This document shows, in pieces, positions 1 through 63,513 of a stretch of 64,000 bases of DNA (its first letter is position 1; each line of letters starts with the position of its first letter). Where the stretch lies: positions 196,354,001-196,418,000 of the forward strand of contig OZ024742.1 in the NCBI GenBank assembly GCA_964016885.1. The letters are read 5' to 3'. Under the pieces are notes generated by a model, which saw nothing but the letters and a program-made list of their open reading frames with translations, did no database searches and had not been told where the DNA came from. Source of the DNA: Eledone cirrhosa (Eukaryota). The position numbers and the translations under genes are program-made.

Positions 1-505
1 TTCTTTATAACGTTCACATATTCTTCACATTCAATGTTCATGTCTCACTACCACAACATCACAGTGTATGCAGATATCATACAATCTTCAAAGAGAAAAC
101 CCCTTTGTTACCAACAAAGGTAGTAGTTCTCTGAACGTTTTGCACACCATTTTTACTCTGGCTTCTATACTTTCAGAACACCTAATGGTGTGGCTGATTT
201 GGTTGCCAAGGTTAACAGAAGCTGTCAACAATTCAGAGGGAGCCTTCCCTGAATTGAAAAAATTCATTTTGTAGGTATTCTTACTACCAACTACTCCACT
301 GCCCAATGCATCTGCTACTTATAATATCTACCTTCTCTATTGGCCTCCCTGTGATTGCACAATATCTCTTCACCCCCATAGTTTTCATGGGTACACTGCA
401 TGGAATTCTTACCAACCTCTGATCCCCCAGTATCTTTTGTACACTTATAGTTTACACAGCATGGAATTCTTGCCTACATTGTTTCTGTATAATGAACATG
501 ACTAT
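1..505 (-). mobile_element. Degraded RTE LINE fragment (PHD-like and post-RT region)
   Basis: ORF 88..306 reads GNQIS...CSESIEARVK...FRELLPLLVTKGFSL, homologous to the RTE copies elsewhere in the window. Confidence 0.8.
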
Positions 506-9531: not shown

Positions 9532-9744
9532 ATAAAATATTAAAAAAATAATGAATAAAACAATGAAACAGTTCCTTATATTAAACAAAAAAAGTTCATT
9601 ATTTAACGATCGTTTCTAGGATATATATGTGTTAGAATTGGCATGCATATTCAACAGATCTATGTACAAAATTATACAAAATTATACAAACTATCAAGAT
9701 TAAATATACATACCAAACACACATATATGCCGTCTTCAGAAATA
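9532..9744 (-). mobile_element. Single-arm copy of the 55162-55588 palindromic hammerhead element
   Basis: Near identical to 55162-55374; the ORF track gives the same [13 protein letters not shown] peptide at both loci. Confidence 0.85.
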
Positions 9745-12502: not shown

Positions 12503-12996
12503 CAGAATTAATAATAGAACACACTCACTGTTTGGTTGGTTTTCGCTTCTCGCTGTCTTTTATATCTGCAATCTAACTTACTCGGTCCTCAATGTTGCCA
12601 TTGACTGACCGGCGGTCAAAAATAATACAGATACAATATAGACACAAACACATATATATAGTTTACATAATTTACATAAATCTTTCGTTGCACATCAGCA
12701 ACATCGTCAGTGGTGTTATATTTTTTCCTCCTGTTGTGTTGTATGTCTACGCCATTTTTTTTATTCAGGAGGAAAAAATATAACACCACTGACGATGTTG
12801 CAGATGTGCAACGAAAGATTTATGTAAATTATGTAAACTATATATATGTGTTTGTGTCTATATTGTATCTGTATTATTTTTGACCGTCGGTCAGTCAATG
12901 GCAACATTGAGGACCGAGTAAGTTAGATCGCAGATATGAAAGACAGCGAGAAGCGAAAACCAACCAAACAGTGAGTGTGTTCTGTTATTAATTCTG
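12503..12996. repeat. Long inverted repeat (about 231-bp arms, 32-nt spacer) with a hammerhead core
   Basis: 12503-12733 is the reverse complement of 12766-12996 with few mismatches; CTGACGA-T-GTTGCA-gatg-TGCAAC-GAAA at 12789-12816. Confidence 0.9.
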
Positions 12997-17761: not shown

Positions 17762-17907
17762 TGGAGGCACATAGCTTAGTGGTTAGAGCATTGGCCTTGC
17801 AATCGAAAGGTTGTGAGTTCAATTCTCAGACTGAGTGATGTGTTGTTTCCTTGAGCAAGACACTTTATTTCACATTGCTCCAGTTTACTCAGCTGTAGAA
17901 ATGAGAT
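17762..17907 (+). mobile_element. tRNA-derived SINE
   Basis: A box tagcttagtgg, B box gagttcaattc, core ccttgagcaagacactt. Confidence 0.75.
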
Positions 17908-23460: not shown

Positions 23461-24306
23461 GGAATAATCTATATAACACTTCTGTTTACACAAAACACAC
23501 AGACAAAGACCTGTATATGTACACATAGAGTGAGTACCCTCTACAGATATATATAATATCTGAATTTAAAAGCTTCATTAGAGAAGCTTTTAAATTCTTG
23601 TCCACTAAGGATGATTTAAATAAGTAAATCTCACATGTAAAACAAATATTAGTTAATAACAGATATACCTACATATTAGTAGACTACTATGCCACAGAAT
23701 AATATTACTGTATTACTCTTTTGTGTGTTCCAGCCGACAGACTATGGACATACTGGGGCACTGCTAGGCTTTTATTCCGTGTCTCTCCTTTGTACTGTCC
23801 TACACCACCTGGTGTATGACAGAACAAAGGAGAGACACAAAATAAGAAATCGGTCACTGAGAAGGTCACAGAATGTGTGACAAAGGTGCTTTGACAATAT
23901 ATAAACCACCATCTGGTTATCGAACCAACCAACCAACCGGAAATTTATAATAAATTGAAGTGAAAACCAACACATGCGTGTGTTTTTATTGGAAGCATGA
24001 TCCTCCAAAAAGAATAATATATATATATATATATATATATATCCAGGGTGTGTAACGCAAAGTTACTGTAGTTTCACCCGGGTGAGCACTCAGTGTTTAG
24101 GTTCACATCAGTATTGACGTGTAGAGCTAGACGGAGTGTCATATAATAATGATTTCTTTCTTTTTTTTTTAATGATTTCTTTATAATGATGAATGGTTAC
24201 TCTTTCATTACGTTTATTGGCTGGTTCAATCTGTATCAATCTAGCCCAACTCTGGAATCAAAAGCTCATCGGACACCTGTGGTAGTAATGTGTGTGTATG
24301 TGGGTA

Positions 24307-27300
24307 TCATCATCAATTTACGTTCGCTTTTTCCAGCTTGCAAGGGTGGGACGGGTCCTATTCAGCACAGCATCTCTCCACTTCTCACGGTCATTTGTCA
24401 TCTCTACCGTGAGCTTCAGTGATCTGAGGTCTGCTCTCACCACCTCCGCCCATGTTTTTCATGGTCTACCTCTACTACGTCTTCCTTTAACTGGCATTTC
24501 TTGGCACTTCTTCACCCATCACTCATCCTCCATGTGCATCACATGTCCATATCATCGAAGTCTCCTCCCCCACACATTACAATCTATCTCTCTCAGACAC
24601 AGTTTCTCTCTCAACAAATACATGCTCGGTCGTTCACACACATTGACACTGCACATCCAACGGAGCATGTTTGTCTCATTTCTCTCCAGCCGTCGCATAT
24701 CCTCTGCAGTTGCTGCGCATGTCTCACTACCATGCAGCATCGCGCTCCTCACACAGGCATCATATAACCGGCCTTTCGCACGCAGGGAGAAACCCATCTT
24801 CATCAGCATAGGAAGCAGCTCCCTAAACTTCTTCCAACCCGTCCTTATTCTAGATACTATGGCCTCAGAACAACCCCCCTCCCATGCTAATCTGATCACC
24901 TAGGTACAGGAAACTAGCAACCACTTCTATAGCACCCTCCTGCCTGCATTTGAAAATGTGTCTATCAATGTGACTTCTACTGTTAAATTTCCCTGTACAT
25001 CTACTGCATACATATTTCTCCCTACCTGTTAATTTGCCTGCTCTCCCACTACATCTCTTGTGTATCCAAGATCTGCATTGTGTGCATTTTATAGAATTTA
25101 TGCCAGTTCCTTTTCTGCATATCGAACATGGCCATTTCCCTGGCGGAATCAGAGTTTTGTCCTCTTTTCTACTCAACACTTTTGTCTCAGTCCTCTTGAT
25201 TCCAACTGCTGTTTCCATAGCCAGAATTTATTCTGTACCTCCTCTACTGATTCTGCTATGAGAACCAGATCGTCAGCATAGAGAAGTTCCCATGGGCAGC
25301 CAATCTTAAACTCCTCTGTTATGGCTTGGAGGACTATAATGAACAAGAGCGGGCTGAGGACCGAACCCTGATGTACTCCTACTTGTATCTGGAATTCCTC
25401 ACTAAACTCTATTCCTACCCTCACTTTATTGACAGCACCTCTGTACAAAGTTTGCACTGTCCTCACAAGCCATTCCTCAACACCTAGTTTCCTTAGGGAC
25501 CACCAGATGATAGATCGGGGGTACCCTATCAAAGGCCTTCTCTAGGTCAACAAAAGCTAAGTATAGTGGCTTATTCTTCTCTAAGAACCTCTCTTGTAAT
25601 TGTCTCACCAAGAAGAGGGCATCTGTTGTACTTTTCCCAGGCACAAAATCAAACTGCATCTCATCTAGTTTGACCCTTTCTCTAATTAGTTGCGCTAATA
25701 TCCTTTCTGCCACTTTCATAACCTGATCTATCAGTTTTATACCCCTATAATTGTTCCTCTCCAGCGCATCTCCTTTAGCTTTGTAGCAATTTATGAGAAT
25801 ACTGCTGCACCAGTCTTTGGGTATGACACTGCCATATATAGCCTGATTGTTGATGCGTTCAACCAGTTTAGTGCCTACGTCCCCTGATGCCTTCAGCATC
25901 TTAGCAACTATCCCCGACTGTCCAGCGGTCTTACCATTTTTCATTTCCTTAATCGCCTCTTGGACCCTATATTTGTCAATCTCAATAGCTGGTCCCTCTG
26001 TTGGATCTACTGAGGGTACTTTCTCTCTCTCCCATTCGTTCAGTCTCTCAATGACATTTCCAGGCCTCCTTTTTCTGATCATTCGTGACACTAATTACAC
26101 CGGCATCATTCCGGACACATTTATCTCCAACAACATCCTGATTTGCATCGACACACTGCCTTGCAATGTGGAACACCGCACGTCTCTGATCTTCCCATCA
26201 CAGAAGATTGGCAAACCTCCTACTCTCAGCCTCCCTGCGTGCTAAGTACACCTGACGTCTAGCTTCCCTCTTAGCGGCTGTATATCTTTCTCTACTCCCA
26301 CCCTTTTTCCAAGCATTCCATGCTAGTCTTTTGTCTCTAAAGGCCCTATCTACTGTGCTGTTCCACCCACAAGTTTCATCAGTAGCATGCAGTAAGTTGT
26401 CACGTAAGAAATTCCAGTTACCATCTATGTCATACGACTCTAAATCGTCTTCTTTTTCGTCACACACATCTTGAAGGGCTTTCCTAAATTTGTATTTTAG
26501 TGAAAGGTCTTTTAGCTTCCTGACCTTTCTTCTCCACACCTTCCTGTACGTCTCATTCTGTCTCTTAGATATCACTAACAACTAACCCGTGCTGTGGGGT
26601 ACATTCTTCCCCAGGGTATGCCTTGGTATTTGACACCATCTGCCTGTCCTGCTGCCTAACTAGTAAGAAGTGAATCTGGCTTATGTGCTTGCCTGATTTG
26701 TAGGTTAGTAGGTGGTTGGCAGGTTTCTGGAAGTTAGTGTTGCAAATGGTTCGTGTACTTGCATCACAAAATTCAAGAAGCCACACTCCTTCATTTCTTG
26801 AGCCGTAACCGTGCCCACCATTTACCCCAGTGTAACCATCCTGGAGCTGTCCAACATGACCATTGAAGTCCCCTGCTAGCATAACGATGTCTCCGTCCGC
26901 TGTCATTGTGGCTGTTTGTAAAAGTTGCTCGTAAAAGCAGTCTTGCTGTTCTTTACCTAGGCCTGCCTGGGGAGCATAGGGAGAGATGATTGTCAGTAGT
27001 CTCTTGCCTACAACTAACCTAAGCTTAATTATTCTATTACTAACTAACTATCTCTATTGTCTTATCGATCCATCTCTCAGCCAGGAAAATGCCTACTCCC
27101 CCTAACCCATCCTCCTTACCTACCCAGAAAAGCTTATAACTAAGATGTTTGCCTGCGATTAGTCTCGCAGAGGCACCTCTCCATCTTGCACGCAGCACAC
27201 ATCCACACCTCTCCTCTCTTGCACGCAGCACACATCCACATGCCTTCTCTCCAGCATCTCTGCCATTTCACCAGATCTAGCTGTGAGAGTGCCAACATTA

Positions 27301-54172: not shown

Positions 54173-55003
54173 TACTACCCCAAGTATTGAGTACTCTGTT
54201 GAGTAATGGTCTAACCAGTTTCAAACTGAATCCATCCTGATATATATATAAAATTAGTCCTTCATCAGTGATCTTCCAACCATCATTGGTATTTCTCCGC
54301 ATTAAAGATCATATACCTCTGGTTGGTGCAAGCAATAACTGAAACAAGTTATTGGGACACGTAAAATAGGGTGAAGCGAGTGAGACATGTAAACAAACAG
54401 AGATGGTAATGCAATGGACAGAGAGGAAGAGGAGAAACAAGTCCGTGATATCTGTGGACTTAAGTTCGATCAAATCATAGACGAGGAGAGACACAGACCA
54501 TCCGAGCCGAGAGAGATGTAAGCGAGAAAAGGATTTCACACAGGTCAAACGGGAGGAAGTGAGAGAGGGGGAGTAGCAGAGAGTGAGTGAGTGAAAGTGT
54601 AAGGAAGAGGCCAGCTGAGAGAGAGAGTGACTGGCAGAGGGGGTAAAACGAAGGTGAGAGATACAGAGAAAGGGGAAGCAGTAAGAAAGAAACAGACAGG
54701 TCACAGCAGAGGGAAAGTTCACAGATATCACGGACTTGTTTCTCCTCTTCCTCTCTTTCCGTTACATTACCATCTCTGTTTGTTTACATGTCTCGCTCGC
54801 TTCACCCTATTTTACGTGTCCCAATAACTTGTTTCAGTTATTGCTTGCACCAACCAGAGGTATATGATCTTTAATGCGGAGAAATACCAATGATGGTTGG
54901 AAGATCACTGATGAAGGACTAATTTTATATATATATCAGGATGGATTCAGTTTGAAACTGGTTAGACCATTACTCAACAGAGTACTCAATACTTAGGGTA
55001 GTA
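54173..55003. repeat. Long inverted repeat (about 289-bp arms, about 250-nt GA-rich spacer) with a hammerhead-like core
   Basis: 54173-54461 versus 54715-55003; CTGATGA-A-GGACT...AGTTT-GAAA-CTGG-TT at 54908-54963. Confidence 0.9.
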
Positions 55004-55012
55004 GTGTGGGTA

Positions 55013-55124
55013 ATAGGAGAAAGTATGACCCCAACGGCAGAGCTCAAGCCGTTTCAATGGCTATTTCTGGACTAGAAATAGCCGTTGAAACGCCTTCAGC
55101 TCTGCCGTCGGGGTCATACTTTCT

Positions 55125-55129
<5 letters not shown>
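55013..55129. repeat. GC-rich palindrome related to the 46.3-kb inner hairpin and the 54.10-kb half copy
   Basis: taggagaaagtatgacccc...ggggtcatactttctccta. Confidence 0.9.
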
Positions 55130-55161
<32 letters not shown>

Positions 55162-55170
<9 letters not shown>

Positions 55171-55588
55171 TAAACAAATAATGAATAAAACAATGAAACA
55201 GTTCCTTATATTAAACAAAAAAAGTTCATTATTTAACGATCGTTTCTAGGATATATATGTGTTAGAATTGGCATGCATATTCAACAGATCTATGTACAAA
55301 ATTATACAAAATTATACAAACTATCAAGATTAAATATACATACCAAACACACATATATGCCGTCTTCAGAAATATTATTTCTGAAGACGGCATATATGTG
55401 TGTTTGGTATGTATATTTAATCTTGATAGTTTGTATAATTTTGTATAATTTTGTACATAGATCTGTTGAATATGCATGCCAATTCTAACACATATATATT
55501 CTAGAAACGATCGTTAAATAATGAACTTTTTTTGTTTAATATAAGGAACTGTTTCATTGTTTTATTCATTATTTGTTTAATATTTTAT
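55162..55588. repeat. 427-bp near-perfect palindrome, 213-bp arms, 1-nt centre at 55375
   Basis: Direct reverse-complement match with one arm mismatch seen; mirror ORFs 55262..55477 (-) and 55273..55488 (+). Confidence 0.97.
55374..55522 (+). ncRNA. Type I hammerhead ribozyme candidate with a very long stem II (family H2)
   Basis: AUUAUUU CUGAAGA [116 nt, self-complementary] GAAA CGAUCG UU AAAUAAU; 7-bp stem I; palindromic loop III. Confidence 0.65.
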
Positions 55589-55719
55589 CTTGACTCTGTA
55601 TTCCGTTTATCTTTCACCGAAAGTGATTTTTCATTACATCTCTTCTTTCCATGATATCCGGAATACATTGAGTTCTTCATACGGATTGGACACTACCGTA
55701 AACTCTTGGTAGATTTATC

Positions 55720-55753
<34 letters not shown>

Positions 55754-55846
55754 CAAAGAGATATTTAATTTGTTGGTAATTCAATAAATATATTTATAAC
55801 AGATTTGAAACACTCAACAGGTTTTCTGGAGTGTAATATCAATGAT

Positions 55847-56133
55847 ATTAATAAATGGAAACTATATTTATAAAACCATATTTATTCTATTATATATATT
55901 TCAAGGGTACCAAAAACTTTGGTACGCTCATCAGATAAAATACAAAATTTGTTTTATAAATAGTGACTATCCAAATGGAACCTGAACTGTTATGGTCCGA
56001 TTCCTGGGTATGTCACTATTTATAAAACAAATTTTGTATATTATCTGATGAGAGCAAACCAAAGATTTTGGTACCCTTGAAATATATAATAGAATAAATA
56101 TGGTTTTATAAATATAGTTGCCATTTATTTAAT
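55847..56133. repeat. Palindrome with family H1 hammerhead motifs in both arms
   Basis: Arms 55847-55967 and 56012-56133; minus-strand motif at 55883-55942, plus-strand motif at 56037-56096. Confidence 0.88.
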
Positions 56134-56514
56134 CTCTCTCTCTCTCTCTCTCTCTACTATAGTCTTCCCTCCAGTATTTCTAGCTTGCATTATACCAACT
56201 TTCTCAAAACAATCCTAACCAAACATTTGATGGCAGAAGTGACAGAAAATACATGAAAAAGCTGGATATAGAACTATTGGGTGAAATAAGAGAAAAGCAA
56301 TATCTATGGAAATTGTATTTCTCCACCACCATCTCATTTCACACCCTCTCTGTCTCTCGTCCCCAATGCACCCTCTCTGTCTTTCTATTTCCCTCTTCTC
56401 CAATGCACCTCCCCCTCTCTCTTTCTACATTAGATCTTCAGTTTAAACACCCTTTCATTCCAAACCAATATATCAATAGATGAAAACACTCCCTACAATG
56501 TACATACATTGGTT

Positions 56515-60562: not shown

Positions 60563-63513
60563 GGGGTTGCCAAACGAACTTAAGGATAGGTTTTATGAGT
60601 CCCTAATACACACTACTGCTCTAACAAACGACAATGACTTCCTAATCATCGCAGGAGATTTTAACAGACACATAGGTAAACACTGTGACGGCTTCAATAG
60701 AGTCCATGGAGGCCACGGGGTTGGTACAAGAAATGAAGAAGGATTCAGACTTCTAGAATTCTGCGACGTCAATGACATGTCGATATGTAACACAAACTTC
60801 AAAAAACCCAACAACCACCTGATCACCTATAGATCAGGGGAGCATTCTAGTCAGATAGATTTTATCCTCATCAGAGGACGTGACAGATGGACGGTTGTAA
60901 ACACAAAAGCCTACCCTAGTGAGGAATGTACCTCCCAACATAGCTTAGTTGTCAGCGACCTCACGGTCAGAACTAGATGAACCTGGAAACAGAGGTCAAC
61001 CTGGAGAAGAAAGATCTGGAAGCTGAAAGACCCCTCAGCCAGTAACAGATTTAAAGATATTTTACTCAACGCCTACAACAGTAAAGAAGAACAGATAGAG
61101 ACATTCAATGTAGAAGAGCACTGGGAGTTCCTAAAAAATAACTTACTAGAGGCGACGGATGAGGTCTGTGGCTGGAGTAAGACCACAAGCAGGAGGAGAG
61201 TGACTTGGTGGTGGAACAATAAGGTAGATGAGGCAGATAAGGCCATGAGACAGGCATGGAAAGAATGGAAGAACGGGGGGAGCAGGGTACATTACATAGA
61301 GACCAAGAGGGAAGCTAGGCGACAAGTATACTAAGCTAGGAGGGAAGCAGAGGATAGAAAATTCAAGCAGCTTTTGCAATGTGAGGACCAGAAATAGGTG
61401 TTCAAGATTGCGAGGCAGTGTGTCAGAGAGAATTGTGATGTCATTGGAGAGAAGTGTATCCGGAATGATAAAGGTGAGCTTGCCCTCACAAGTGCTGAGA
61501 AGAAAGATGCATGGAAGAGCCATTATGATAGATTACTAAATGAGGAGAATGCATGGGAAGAAGAGACCCTACCCCAAGTAAACCCTATAGAGGGGCCAGC
61601 AGTACAAGTCAGCAGCAGAGTAGTAAGTAAGACAATCAAAGATATAAAGATGGGGAAAGCAACTGGTCCATCGGGTATAGCTGCCGATATACTGAAAGCA
61701 TCTGGGTCTGTATGTCACAATATAACCACACGTATTGTTAACCAGGTAATACTAGAGGGTATAATACCAAAAGATTGGTGCAGTAGCATCATTGTCAACT
61801 GCTACAAAGGTAAAGGTGATGCACTAGATAGAGGAAACTATAGAGGTATAAAGCTGATGGACCAGGTCATGAAAGTAACAGAAAGAGTTATAGCACAGTT
61901 GATTAGGGGCCGGGTGAAACTAGAAGAGATGCTATTTGGGTTTGTACCAGGAAGAGGCAGCATTGATGCCCTCTTCCTTGTGAGGCAGTTACAGGAAAAG
62001 TACCTAGCTAAAAGTAAGCCACTCTACCTGGCATTCGTCGATCTCGAGAAAGCCTTTGACAGAGTTCCCCGTGCTATAATGTGGTGGGCTCTTAGAAAAC
62101 TAGGAGTAGATGAATGGCCTGTGAAAGCTGTACAAGCCATGTATGGGGAGCAGTTAGCAAAGTTAGAGTTAGCAATGACTATAGCGAGGAATTTAGCGGC
62201 TCTGTTCTTAGCCCTCTCCTGTTCATCATAGTCCTGCAGGCAATAACGGAGGAGTTTAAGACCGGATGCCCATGGGAACTCCTGTATGCTGATGACCTCG
62301 CACTTATAGCTGAATCTATGGTAGAACTAGAGAAGAAATTCCAAACTTGGAAGCAGGGACTAGAAAGAAAGGGTCTCAAAGTCAACATGACAAAGACTAA
62401 GGTCCTTGTAAGTAGATGAGAAAACAGAACCCAGATCCCCTCAGAGAAATGGCCTTGCTCAGTATGTAGAAAAGGTGTAGGTAGGAACTCCATTCTCTGC
62501 CCCAAATGCAAACAATGGGTACACAAGAGATGTAGCGGGATCTCAGGAAGCTTAATTAAGAATGTAGGCTTCACATGCAGCAGCTGTGCTGGAACAGCAA
62601 GCAGCAAATAGCCACAGGAAACAAGTACCACCAATCTCTAGGAGGGCTATGTAGAAACAGTAGACAGCTTCTGCTACCTAGGTGACCGAATTAGCAGCGG
62701 AGGTGGGTGTTCAGAAATTACAATAACTAGGGTAAGAACGGGATGGAAGAAGTTCAGGGAACTACTGCCACTGCTAGCTGCAAAAGGCTTCTCCCTCAAA
62801 ATGAAAGGCAGACTGTATGATTCGTGTATCCGAACAGCAATGTTACATGGTAGCGAGACCTGGGCACTGAAGGTGGAAGACTTACGTAGATTAGAAAGAA
62901 ACGAAGCCTGCATGTTCCGATGGATGTGTAATAGTAATATACACGAATGACAAAGCATAAATGAATTGAGAGAGAGACTGAGCATAAGGGGAATCAAATG
63001 CTGTGTGCAAGAGAGGCGGTTGCGTTGGTATGGACATGTGATGCGTATGAAGGATGACAGCTGCATAAAAAGGTGCAGAGCACTAGAAGCCAATGGAAAC
63101 CGCGAAGTGGGGAGACCTAAGAAGACCTGGGATGAGGTGATAAAAGCCGACCTTACCAAATTACACCTCTGGCGTCACGCAGTAATACAGAGTACCTGAC
63201 CTCCCATGGGTACAAGCTGAAGCATATAGACAATATGCCTCCACACCCTCCCACTGCAAGGTGGTCGTGGAGGTGCCCCGGCAAAAAAGCACCCAGCCCA
63301 CACTGTAAAGTGGACATGTAGCGCCACGAAAAAAAGCATCCAGCACTCACTGTAAATGAGGTTGTGTTAGGAAGGGCATCAAGCCAAAATCAGTTCCTGT
63401 ATGAGCAAGGCGTGGTCAGCCGACCAGACACTGCCCACAACAGTACAACTCGTCTAACCCATGCTAGCATGGAAGAACAGACGTAAAACGGTGATGATGA
63501 TGATGATGATGAT
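60563..63513 (+). mobile_element. 5'-truncated long RTE LINE (family C): APE C-terminal half, RT, PHD-like finger, 3' UTR
   Basis: AGDFNRHIG, SQIDFIL, QHSLVV; NYRGIKL, LAFVDLEKAFD, LLYADD; WPCSVC..WVHKRC; multiple stops; (GAT)n tail. Confidence 0.95.

Follow-up and report, generated by a model that had tools for sequence, protein, structure and literature searches.

A long-armed hammerhead motif in the pseudo-LTR of a young Hydra-type Penelope-like element of Eledone cirrhosa

A 64,000-nt stretch of Eledone cirrhosa DNA (contig OZ024742.1; hereafter the window, with positions counted from its first base) carries at 55374-55522 a motif that the evidence from its sequence supports as a type I hammerhead. 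The motif lies in a pseudo-LTR, that of a Penelope-like element (PLE) which is young and of Hydra type. PLE pseudo-LTRs are already known to contain hammerheads, whose role PMC7761336 describes as unknown; what is unusual about the present motif is its long stem II alone. The best explanation of the whole, which we hold with moderate confidence, is a conditional PLE hammerhead in an element whose transcription would start internally and whose reverse transcription (RT) would run on uncut RNA.

Anatomy of the motif

The motif of the window is composed of the following parts.

55374..55380, plus strand: ATTATTT, 5' strand of stem I; transcription likely starts at its first base
55381..55387, plus strand: core box CUGAAGA (CTGAAGA in the DNA; C3-A9), in which N7 is the sole position with recurrent change
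55388..55503, plus strand: 116-nt insert forming stem II, assigned from folds and covariation
55407..55412, plus strand: splice-donor-like GTATGT, paired inside stem II, at the 34th nucleotide from the putative transcript start and present in 18 of 19 aligned copies
55504..55515, plus strand: GAAACGATCGTT, comprising the GAAA box, the self-complementary stem III ACGAUCGU and the GUU triplet; cleavage is predicted after 55515
55516..55525, plus strand: 3' strand of stem I, of which AAATAAT (55516-55522) provides the 7 bp paired at the locus; up to 10 bp in read-through RNA

The boxes, the 116-nt insert and stem I lie exactly where the first-pass annotation had put them, and the two stem II helices that it described were found at their places, the second with three non-Watson-Crick positions, all of them U-G. 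From the base outward, stem II consists of C.A, G.U, G-C and C.U, followed by a 13-bp helix, a 17-bp helix holding the three U-G pairs, and a conserved apical element. A stem I of 7 bp holds for the window copy, which ends after seven pairs; full-length elements can have ten.

The required boxes CUGANGA and GAAA, with A15.1-U16.1, are present in the window copy, and the triplet GUU at 55513-55515 is of the required NUH form. The pair G10.1-C11.1, typical but not obligatory, is absent and replaced by C.A; relatives have U-A in one subfamily and G-C or G-U in another family. Natural U.U variants at 10.1-11.1 are on record (PMC3088659), and File S2 of PMC8557442 contains both U.U, which is common there, and C.A, which occurs in PLE-X1_cBra as it does in the window motif. 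A conserved C.C mismatch lies three positions outward from the C.A, and the two together make for a weak base of stem II, bearing out the earlier description of that base as imperfect. At 55500 a C-to-T change private to the window copy faces an unpaired C. No tertiary contact between stems I and II was recognisable in the window motif by eye; PLE hammerheads are described as lacking this contact (PMC7761336). GUU, which the first-pass annotation had called a weaker triplet, is ordinary for the Hydra clade, and older subfamilies of the element have GUA.

The expectation that descriptors with short helix limits would miss the motif was borne out by Rfam, which returned no hammerhead at gathering score across the whole 64-kb window, nor any at E<=10 over 54800-56300, where just generic hairpin models matched the palindrome described below.

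The locus and its surroundings

The motif sits in a 213-bp palindrome (55162-55588) with one mismatch and a 1-nt centre at 55375, flanked on both sides by (TA)n tracts (55127-55164 and 55723-55751). The palindrome is formed by two truncated pseudo-LTR copies placed head to head, and a third copy lies elsewhere in the window.

55374..55725, plus strand: 5'-truncated pseudo-LTR copy, from -7 to +344 relative to the core C, its long 3' end running into (TA)n; 99.4% identical to the full-length element L031
55162..55374, minus strand: second 5'-truncated copy, inverted; it runs into (TA)n at the short 3' end (+207), and a hammerhead core of its own begins at 55369
55589..55725, plus strand: 137-nt 'tail' that separates the short from the long 3' end of insertions
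9532..9744, minus strand: third pseudo-LTR copy, inside an (AT)n array

The first-pass annotation had read the locus as a single hammerhead; the motif stands, and the second copy on the minus strand had been missed.

Several other repeats share the window. A 56-bp foldback at 55013-55129, which has a (TA)n tract in common with the PLE pair and a relative flanking an insertion elsewhere in the genome (L018), is by its sequence another (TA)n-associated repeat. In a foldback of a different repeat family at 55850-56129, each strand bears a short hammerhead-like motif (core at +56045 on one, at -55934 on the other), with a stem II of ~26 nt and a stem III formed by palindromic ATATAT; this foldback has a related copy at -12237, and a similar family is present at +14346, -14270 and -14444. 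Each arm of a 289-bp inverted repeat (98%) at 54173-55003 has a degenerate hammerhead-like motif with a stem II region of 38 nt (cores at +54908 and -54268), and at 12710 (minus) and 12789 (plus) two copies of a further family stand head to head, with CTGACGA and 17 nt in the stem II region. A weak tRNA match (31 bits) at 17770-17833 is probably a tRNA-derived SINE head, and frames of 120-280 codons with higher GC at 24289-26581 and 61398-62637 resemble decayed fragments of LINE-type RT.

The parent element

Twenty ten-kb stretches around perfect copies of the motif were inspected. In L031, two direct motif copies 6,140 bp apart surround a frame of 839 codons; several others of the 20 hold long frames with inverted 5' parts. 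Tandem arrays are spaced 6.6-6.9 kb, and the element unit measures 6.1-6.9 kb. Its single ORF of ~815 aa encodes an RT with a C-terminal GIY-YIG domain, and the presence of direct repeats around such a frame in full-length copies secures the link with PLEs that the first-pass annotation had drawn. At least 144 scored genomic matches to the RT region are 99-100% identical, many of them in frames near 830 codons.

The representative protein P0001 (813 aa) has YRDD at 345 and YIG at 707, together with RWR at 36, DKT at 114, CxCx5C (CNCRNKANC) at 673, CxxC (CRLC) at 771 and CxH (CNH) at 799. RWK-like, DKT, the CxCx5C linker, and CxxC and CxH flanking a conserved E and N constitute the diagnostic set of the Hydra clade, which inserts in (TA)n (PMC8557442), and the match to this set underlies our assignment of P0001. 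A Pfam search gave no match for P0001 or for three of four homologues, and the homologue P0041 matches RVT_1; 98 database homologues of P0001 were found at 30-48% identity, one of them labelled Octopus. The pseudo-LTRs, the tandem and inverted insertions and the (TA)n target are all traits that the element shares with the Hydra clade. The length below 3 kb given for that clade in PMC8557442, a general and not a defining trait, is exceeded by the 6.1-6.9 kb unit, which includes a long microsatellite-rich 3' region. Judged from its motifs and from visual comparison with the Octopus family Hydra-1_Obim of PMC8557442, whose N-terminus is visibly homologous to P0001, the element is a new Hydra-type family. 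Two other assignments were rejected: Naiad/Chlamys, on account of the C-terminal endonuclease and the DKT motif; and a retrozyme, given the autonomous ORF, the lack of short head-to-tail tandems and the derivation of the copies as truncated parts of an ORF-bearing 6-kb element.

Abundance, conservation and covariation

At least 11,074 sites in the genome have the two core boxes 95-125 nt apart, and a reversed control gives 0, so that the motif cannot be ascribed to chance. The best 40 of 593 candidates are ~100% identical over 217 nt, and a 26-mer just downstream of the motif occurs 5,444 times; by these sequence counts the pseudo-LTR repeat is young and abundant. A looser pattern, with loop III relaxed and 85-125 nt between the boxes, yielded 24,251 matches against 1,191 for its control.

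We aligned 19 copies, including the window copy, which were hand-picked for diversity and selected on the core and GAAA box. On the hammerhead structure 92% of 887 cells of this alignment pair, against 24-57% in shifted controls. Nine of the 47 pairs change on both sides, among them four of five at the base of stem II and three of ten in stem I (one well supported); the rows come from few master lineages and thus represent few independent events, and the pairing of columns 71-88 is probably an effect of alignment register. At the base of stem II one pair appears as A-U, G-U and G-C, and three more pairs show two-sided changes; in one subfamily the outer helix of stem II is replaced by GGGUAGU/ACUACCC. 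One pair of stem I passes through the series U-A, U-G and C-G across subfamilies. The stretch of GAAA, stem III and triplet, on which the rows had been selected, is invariant except at H17. The apical pairs GAT/ATC and TGTA/TACA are the same in 19 of 19 rows and are conserved in a distant family, a recurrence which suggests a binding site.

A search on the arm alone, which imposed nothing on the core, gave 12,393 matches. Among the first 100 listed, 15 loci lacking the core pattern were inspected: an A-to-G change at N7, seen in five of them, is the sole repeated core change, and the remainder are truncations or changes confined to single copies. At H17 the copies show U, A or C, although most patterns demanded H, and GUA and GUC triplets are found in related families. 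Across subfamilies the core and stems I and II are kept with compensatory changes; the view of the first-pass annotation that the long stem II is a variant at the RNA level is upheld by covariation of stem II across subfamilies.

Stem II varies in length from 97 to 116 nt. Other families keep the core and have the same stem III box, their stems I and II being unrelated in sequence; the arms are branched structures of 82-95 nt, arms of 40 nt, or arms of 20 nt with a plain helix of 7-8 bp. Two families with 92-95-nt arms adjoin remnants of PLE ORFs with ~49% RT identity, and short-stem relatives with the same stem III number 136 matches. In the first 25 Mb of one contig (C1) we noted at least six further families with 85-100 nt between the hammerhead boxes and differing loop III. 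Contigs of four sequencing runs contained related sequence from two other organisms in short pieces, which were left out of the covariation analysis.

Folding and predicted cleavage

The 157-nt region around the motif folds at -42.7 kcal/mol (z -4.58), and 0 of 200 shuffles were as good. As RNA, the 116-nt insert reaches -40.3 kcal/mol on the ribozyme strand versus -17.5 kcal/mol on the opposite strand, an asymmetry expected if the G-U pairs matter, and one that agrees with the earlier proposal of RNA-level structure on the ribozyme strand. The hammerhead fold is not the minimum: for a monomer starting at stem I it lies 4-6 kcal/mol above the minimum-energy fold, and for a dimer about 7 kcal/mol, because UUUCU pairs with AGAAA. 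The gap shrinks to 1.2 kcal/mol with the 10-bp stem I of read-through RNA. RNAalifold applied to the 19-copy alignment predicted an alternative that sequesters the core, and not stem I. Stem III has 2 bp in the monomer and becomes an 8-bp self-complementary duplex of -10 kcal/mol in the dimer; it is invariant in the lineage of the element and hence without covariation.

Traces of cutting were sought among the starts of copies. Sixty-three copies begin at the predicted cut site, versus 12 at one control position. In a wider scan of starts, read by eye in the first 100 of 427 rows, positions +133..135 account for 18 (four by stem I microhomology) and +140 alone for 13, so that no peak stands out clearly and much of the excess at the cut site can be explained by AT microhomology. 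Five of 25 insertions examined are palindromes or repeated restarts from the predicted cut (L277, L278, L282, L284, L289). Cleavage of the hammerhead, as predicted from sequence and fold, is in our estimation somewhat probable as a conditional event, and likely only as such, because most new copies appear to have been copied from uncut RNA.

Insertion ends and a proposed life cycle

The ends of insertions were determined at 21 unselected sites, which provided 31 ends. At the 5' side, 18 of 31 lie at -4..-8 from the core C. At the 3' side, 30 of 31 fall at one of two places, +204..207 (15 ends) or +344..346 (15 ends), and nine of ten head-to-head pairs have one arm ending at +207 and the other at +344, as in the window. 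In the youngest subfamilies, at least 1,380 copies start exactly at -7, the first base of stem I, without the preceding C. In intact elements this base is the A of an initiator-like TCATT, which we take to resemble the insect initiator consensus. For Penelope, an internal promoter that includes an initiator is described (PMC2377424). To judge by the ends of the copies, the first base of stem I is likely the transcript start. Some copies, L082 and L099 among them, have short repeats of the first 10-30 nt of the element at their 5' junctions, as if RT re-primed again and again at the 5' end of the RNA.

In a lizard PLE, RT in vitro starts at two internal sites and proceeds to the 5' end of the RNA, unprocessed RNA is the dominant template and the hammerhead is protein-assisted (PMC11167929). 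By our reading of that work, the 137-nt tail likely marks two RT start sites. At 55670-55680, ~45 nt upstream of the long 3' end, there is a GAGTTCTTCA motif that is kept in families of ~49% RT identity (L268, L265); it is a candidate signal for RT binding or initiation. The templates were uncut or religated, because the cDNAs cross the cleavage site, and it is likely from the extent of the copies that most insertions were copied from uncleaved RNA.

We propose a life cycle in which transcription from an internal promoter would start at the first base of stem I, and RT would start at the internal site +207 or +344 and copy uncut RNA back to its 5' end. The palindrome of the window would result if two cDNAs of this kind were joined head to head within a (TA)n target. 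The hammerhead would be a slow, conditional ribozyme that needs a partner copy or the protein of the element, and the long stem II is predicted to act as one paired arm keeping the two halves of the core together. Cleavage after 55515 would take place in a minority of molecules through the 8-bp intermolecular stem III, formed between tandem or separate copies. At the window locus itself, host read-through RNA would have its arms paired together, masking both ribozymes, and folding would be open only to RNA initiated at the start of the right arm itself.

Alternative readings of the fold and the arm

The conserved fold might serve without cleavage, as a site for binding or positioning the PLE protein at the 5' end of the RNA or as an overlap with the promoter, with cleavage negligible in vivo. 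Most short insertions span the entire motif up to stem I, the hammerhead fold is not the energy minimum and the invariant apical pairs recur in a distant family, all of which agree with such a function, as does the report for the lizard PLE that hammerhead mutants left insertion in vitro unaffected and that no RNA-seq ends fell at the cut site (PMC11167929). The variation among copies nevertheless obeys catalytic rules, with N7 as the sole recurrent change, H17 seen as U, A or C (under patterns that mostly demanded H) and stem I covarying, and a few insertions are the palindromes or restarts from the predicted cut described above; we regard a fold that does not cleave as unlikely. The arm alone could also be a tolerated, neutral, microsatellite-like expansion of loop II, its pairing due to (TA)n/(TG)n/(CA)n composition or to a past DNA foldback. 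It is AT-rich, contains a 10-nt tandem repeat and varies in length, the genome is rich in foldbacks, and short-stem relatives share its stem III; but the strand asymmetry from G-U pairs, the two-sided changes that include replacement by a G/C-rich helix, and the recurrence of long arms of unrelated sequence in other families largely refute neutrality as far as pairing is concerned and leave the reading very improbable.

The position of GTATGT raises the further prospect that the long arm is a splicing switch hiding a donor in the 5' UTR, so that folded RNA would remain unspliced as the RT template and spliced RNA, without the 3' half of the ribozyme, would serve as mRNA. GTAAGT stands at the same place in a family of ~49% RT identity, the leader of ~502 nt has 8-11 upstream ATGs (12 copies), and in Penelope an intron follows 46 bp after the start (PMC2377424). 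However, GTATGT is common in the microsatellite-rich DNA around the element, other long-armed families have no such donor, and a decayed copy from the distant family does not preserve the candidate acceptor AG. No genomic copy lacking the long candidate intron was found, which carries little weight as PLEs retain introns, and one imprecise copy resembles the loss of a mini-intron. We consider this switch distinctly improbable. The related notion that the enlarged stem II is a grafted regulatory domain that buries the splice donor, separating an unspliced ribozyme template from a spliced mRNA without the ribozyme and the upstream ATGs, seems to us quite unlikely on the sequences at hand. The conditional hammerhead with an internal start remains the reading that we prefer.

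Comparison with known systems

The element shares with the C-terminal EN+ PLEs of the Hydra clade (Craig et al. 2021, PMC8557442) the motifs RW[K/R], DKT, CxCx5C and CxxC/CxH and the (TA)n targets, and with their hammerheads the type I form in the pLTR, GUU/GUA triplets and a mismatch at 10.1-11.1. The entries in PMC8557442 differ in both helices: stem II is at most about 26 nt in the listed Hydra entries and about 53 nt in the longest PLE-X, against 97-116 nt in the element, and stem III has 3-4 bp, against 2 bp with a fully palindromic loop. The folded arm would thus be, by sequence, about four times longer than in described relatives. A search of titles and the beginnings of abstracts found no report of a stem II of ~100 nt in PLEs.

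The PLE hammerheads of Cervera and De la Pena 2014 (PMC4209133) are likewise of type I in the pLTR, are predicted to act as dimers through a palindromic stem III and have copies in opposite orientation 100-700 bp apart; their helix II has 6-8 bp with a conserved G10.1-C11.1, whereas the element has a multi-helix arm of >30 bp on a C.A base. Poseidon PAc of Anolis (Frangieh et al. 2024, PMC11167929) has in common with the element two discrete 3' ends, AT-rich targets, a hammerhead near the RNA 5' end and uncleaved RNA as the dominant template, the last deduced for the element from its copies. It belongs to a different PLE clade, and its hammerhead overlaps the ORF start, while that of the element lies ~360 nt upstream of the ATG; the tail of 137 nt compares with 30-40 bp described for PLEs in PMC11167929. 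Metazoan non-LTR retrozymes (PMC7229834; bioRxiv 10.64898/2026.07.22.740005) also have a type I hammerhead with a weak helix III, and ORF-less copies of ~350 nt, pLTR-derived or related. Retrozymes are, however, head-to-tail tandems of 150-400 bp (PMC7229834), whereas the short copies of the element are dispersed, single or head to head, and 5'-truncated, and have an autonomous parent.

Significance

The element of this family is very young; many of its ORFs are intact, and its ribozyme copies exceed 11,000. Counts of hammerheads in such genomes are likely underestimates, given the excess of long-stem-II matches over their control and the failure of Rfam to detect the window copy; about 23,000 long-armed hammerheads in this lineage would escape standard annotation. 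Genomic support, from a second PLE clade, for internal initiation of RT on uncleaved RNA comes from the sharpness of the 5' boundary at stem I together with the two fixed positions of the 3' end. If true, the splicing-switch arm would offer a way to explain why Penelope-like elements retain introns, a puzzle of long standing. The fixed 5' and 3' ends define exact constructs for work on cleavage, dimerisation and splicing.
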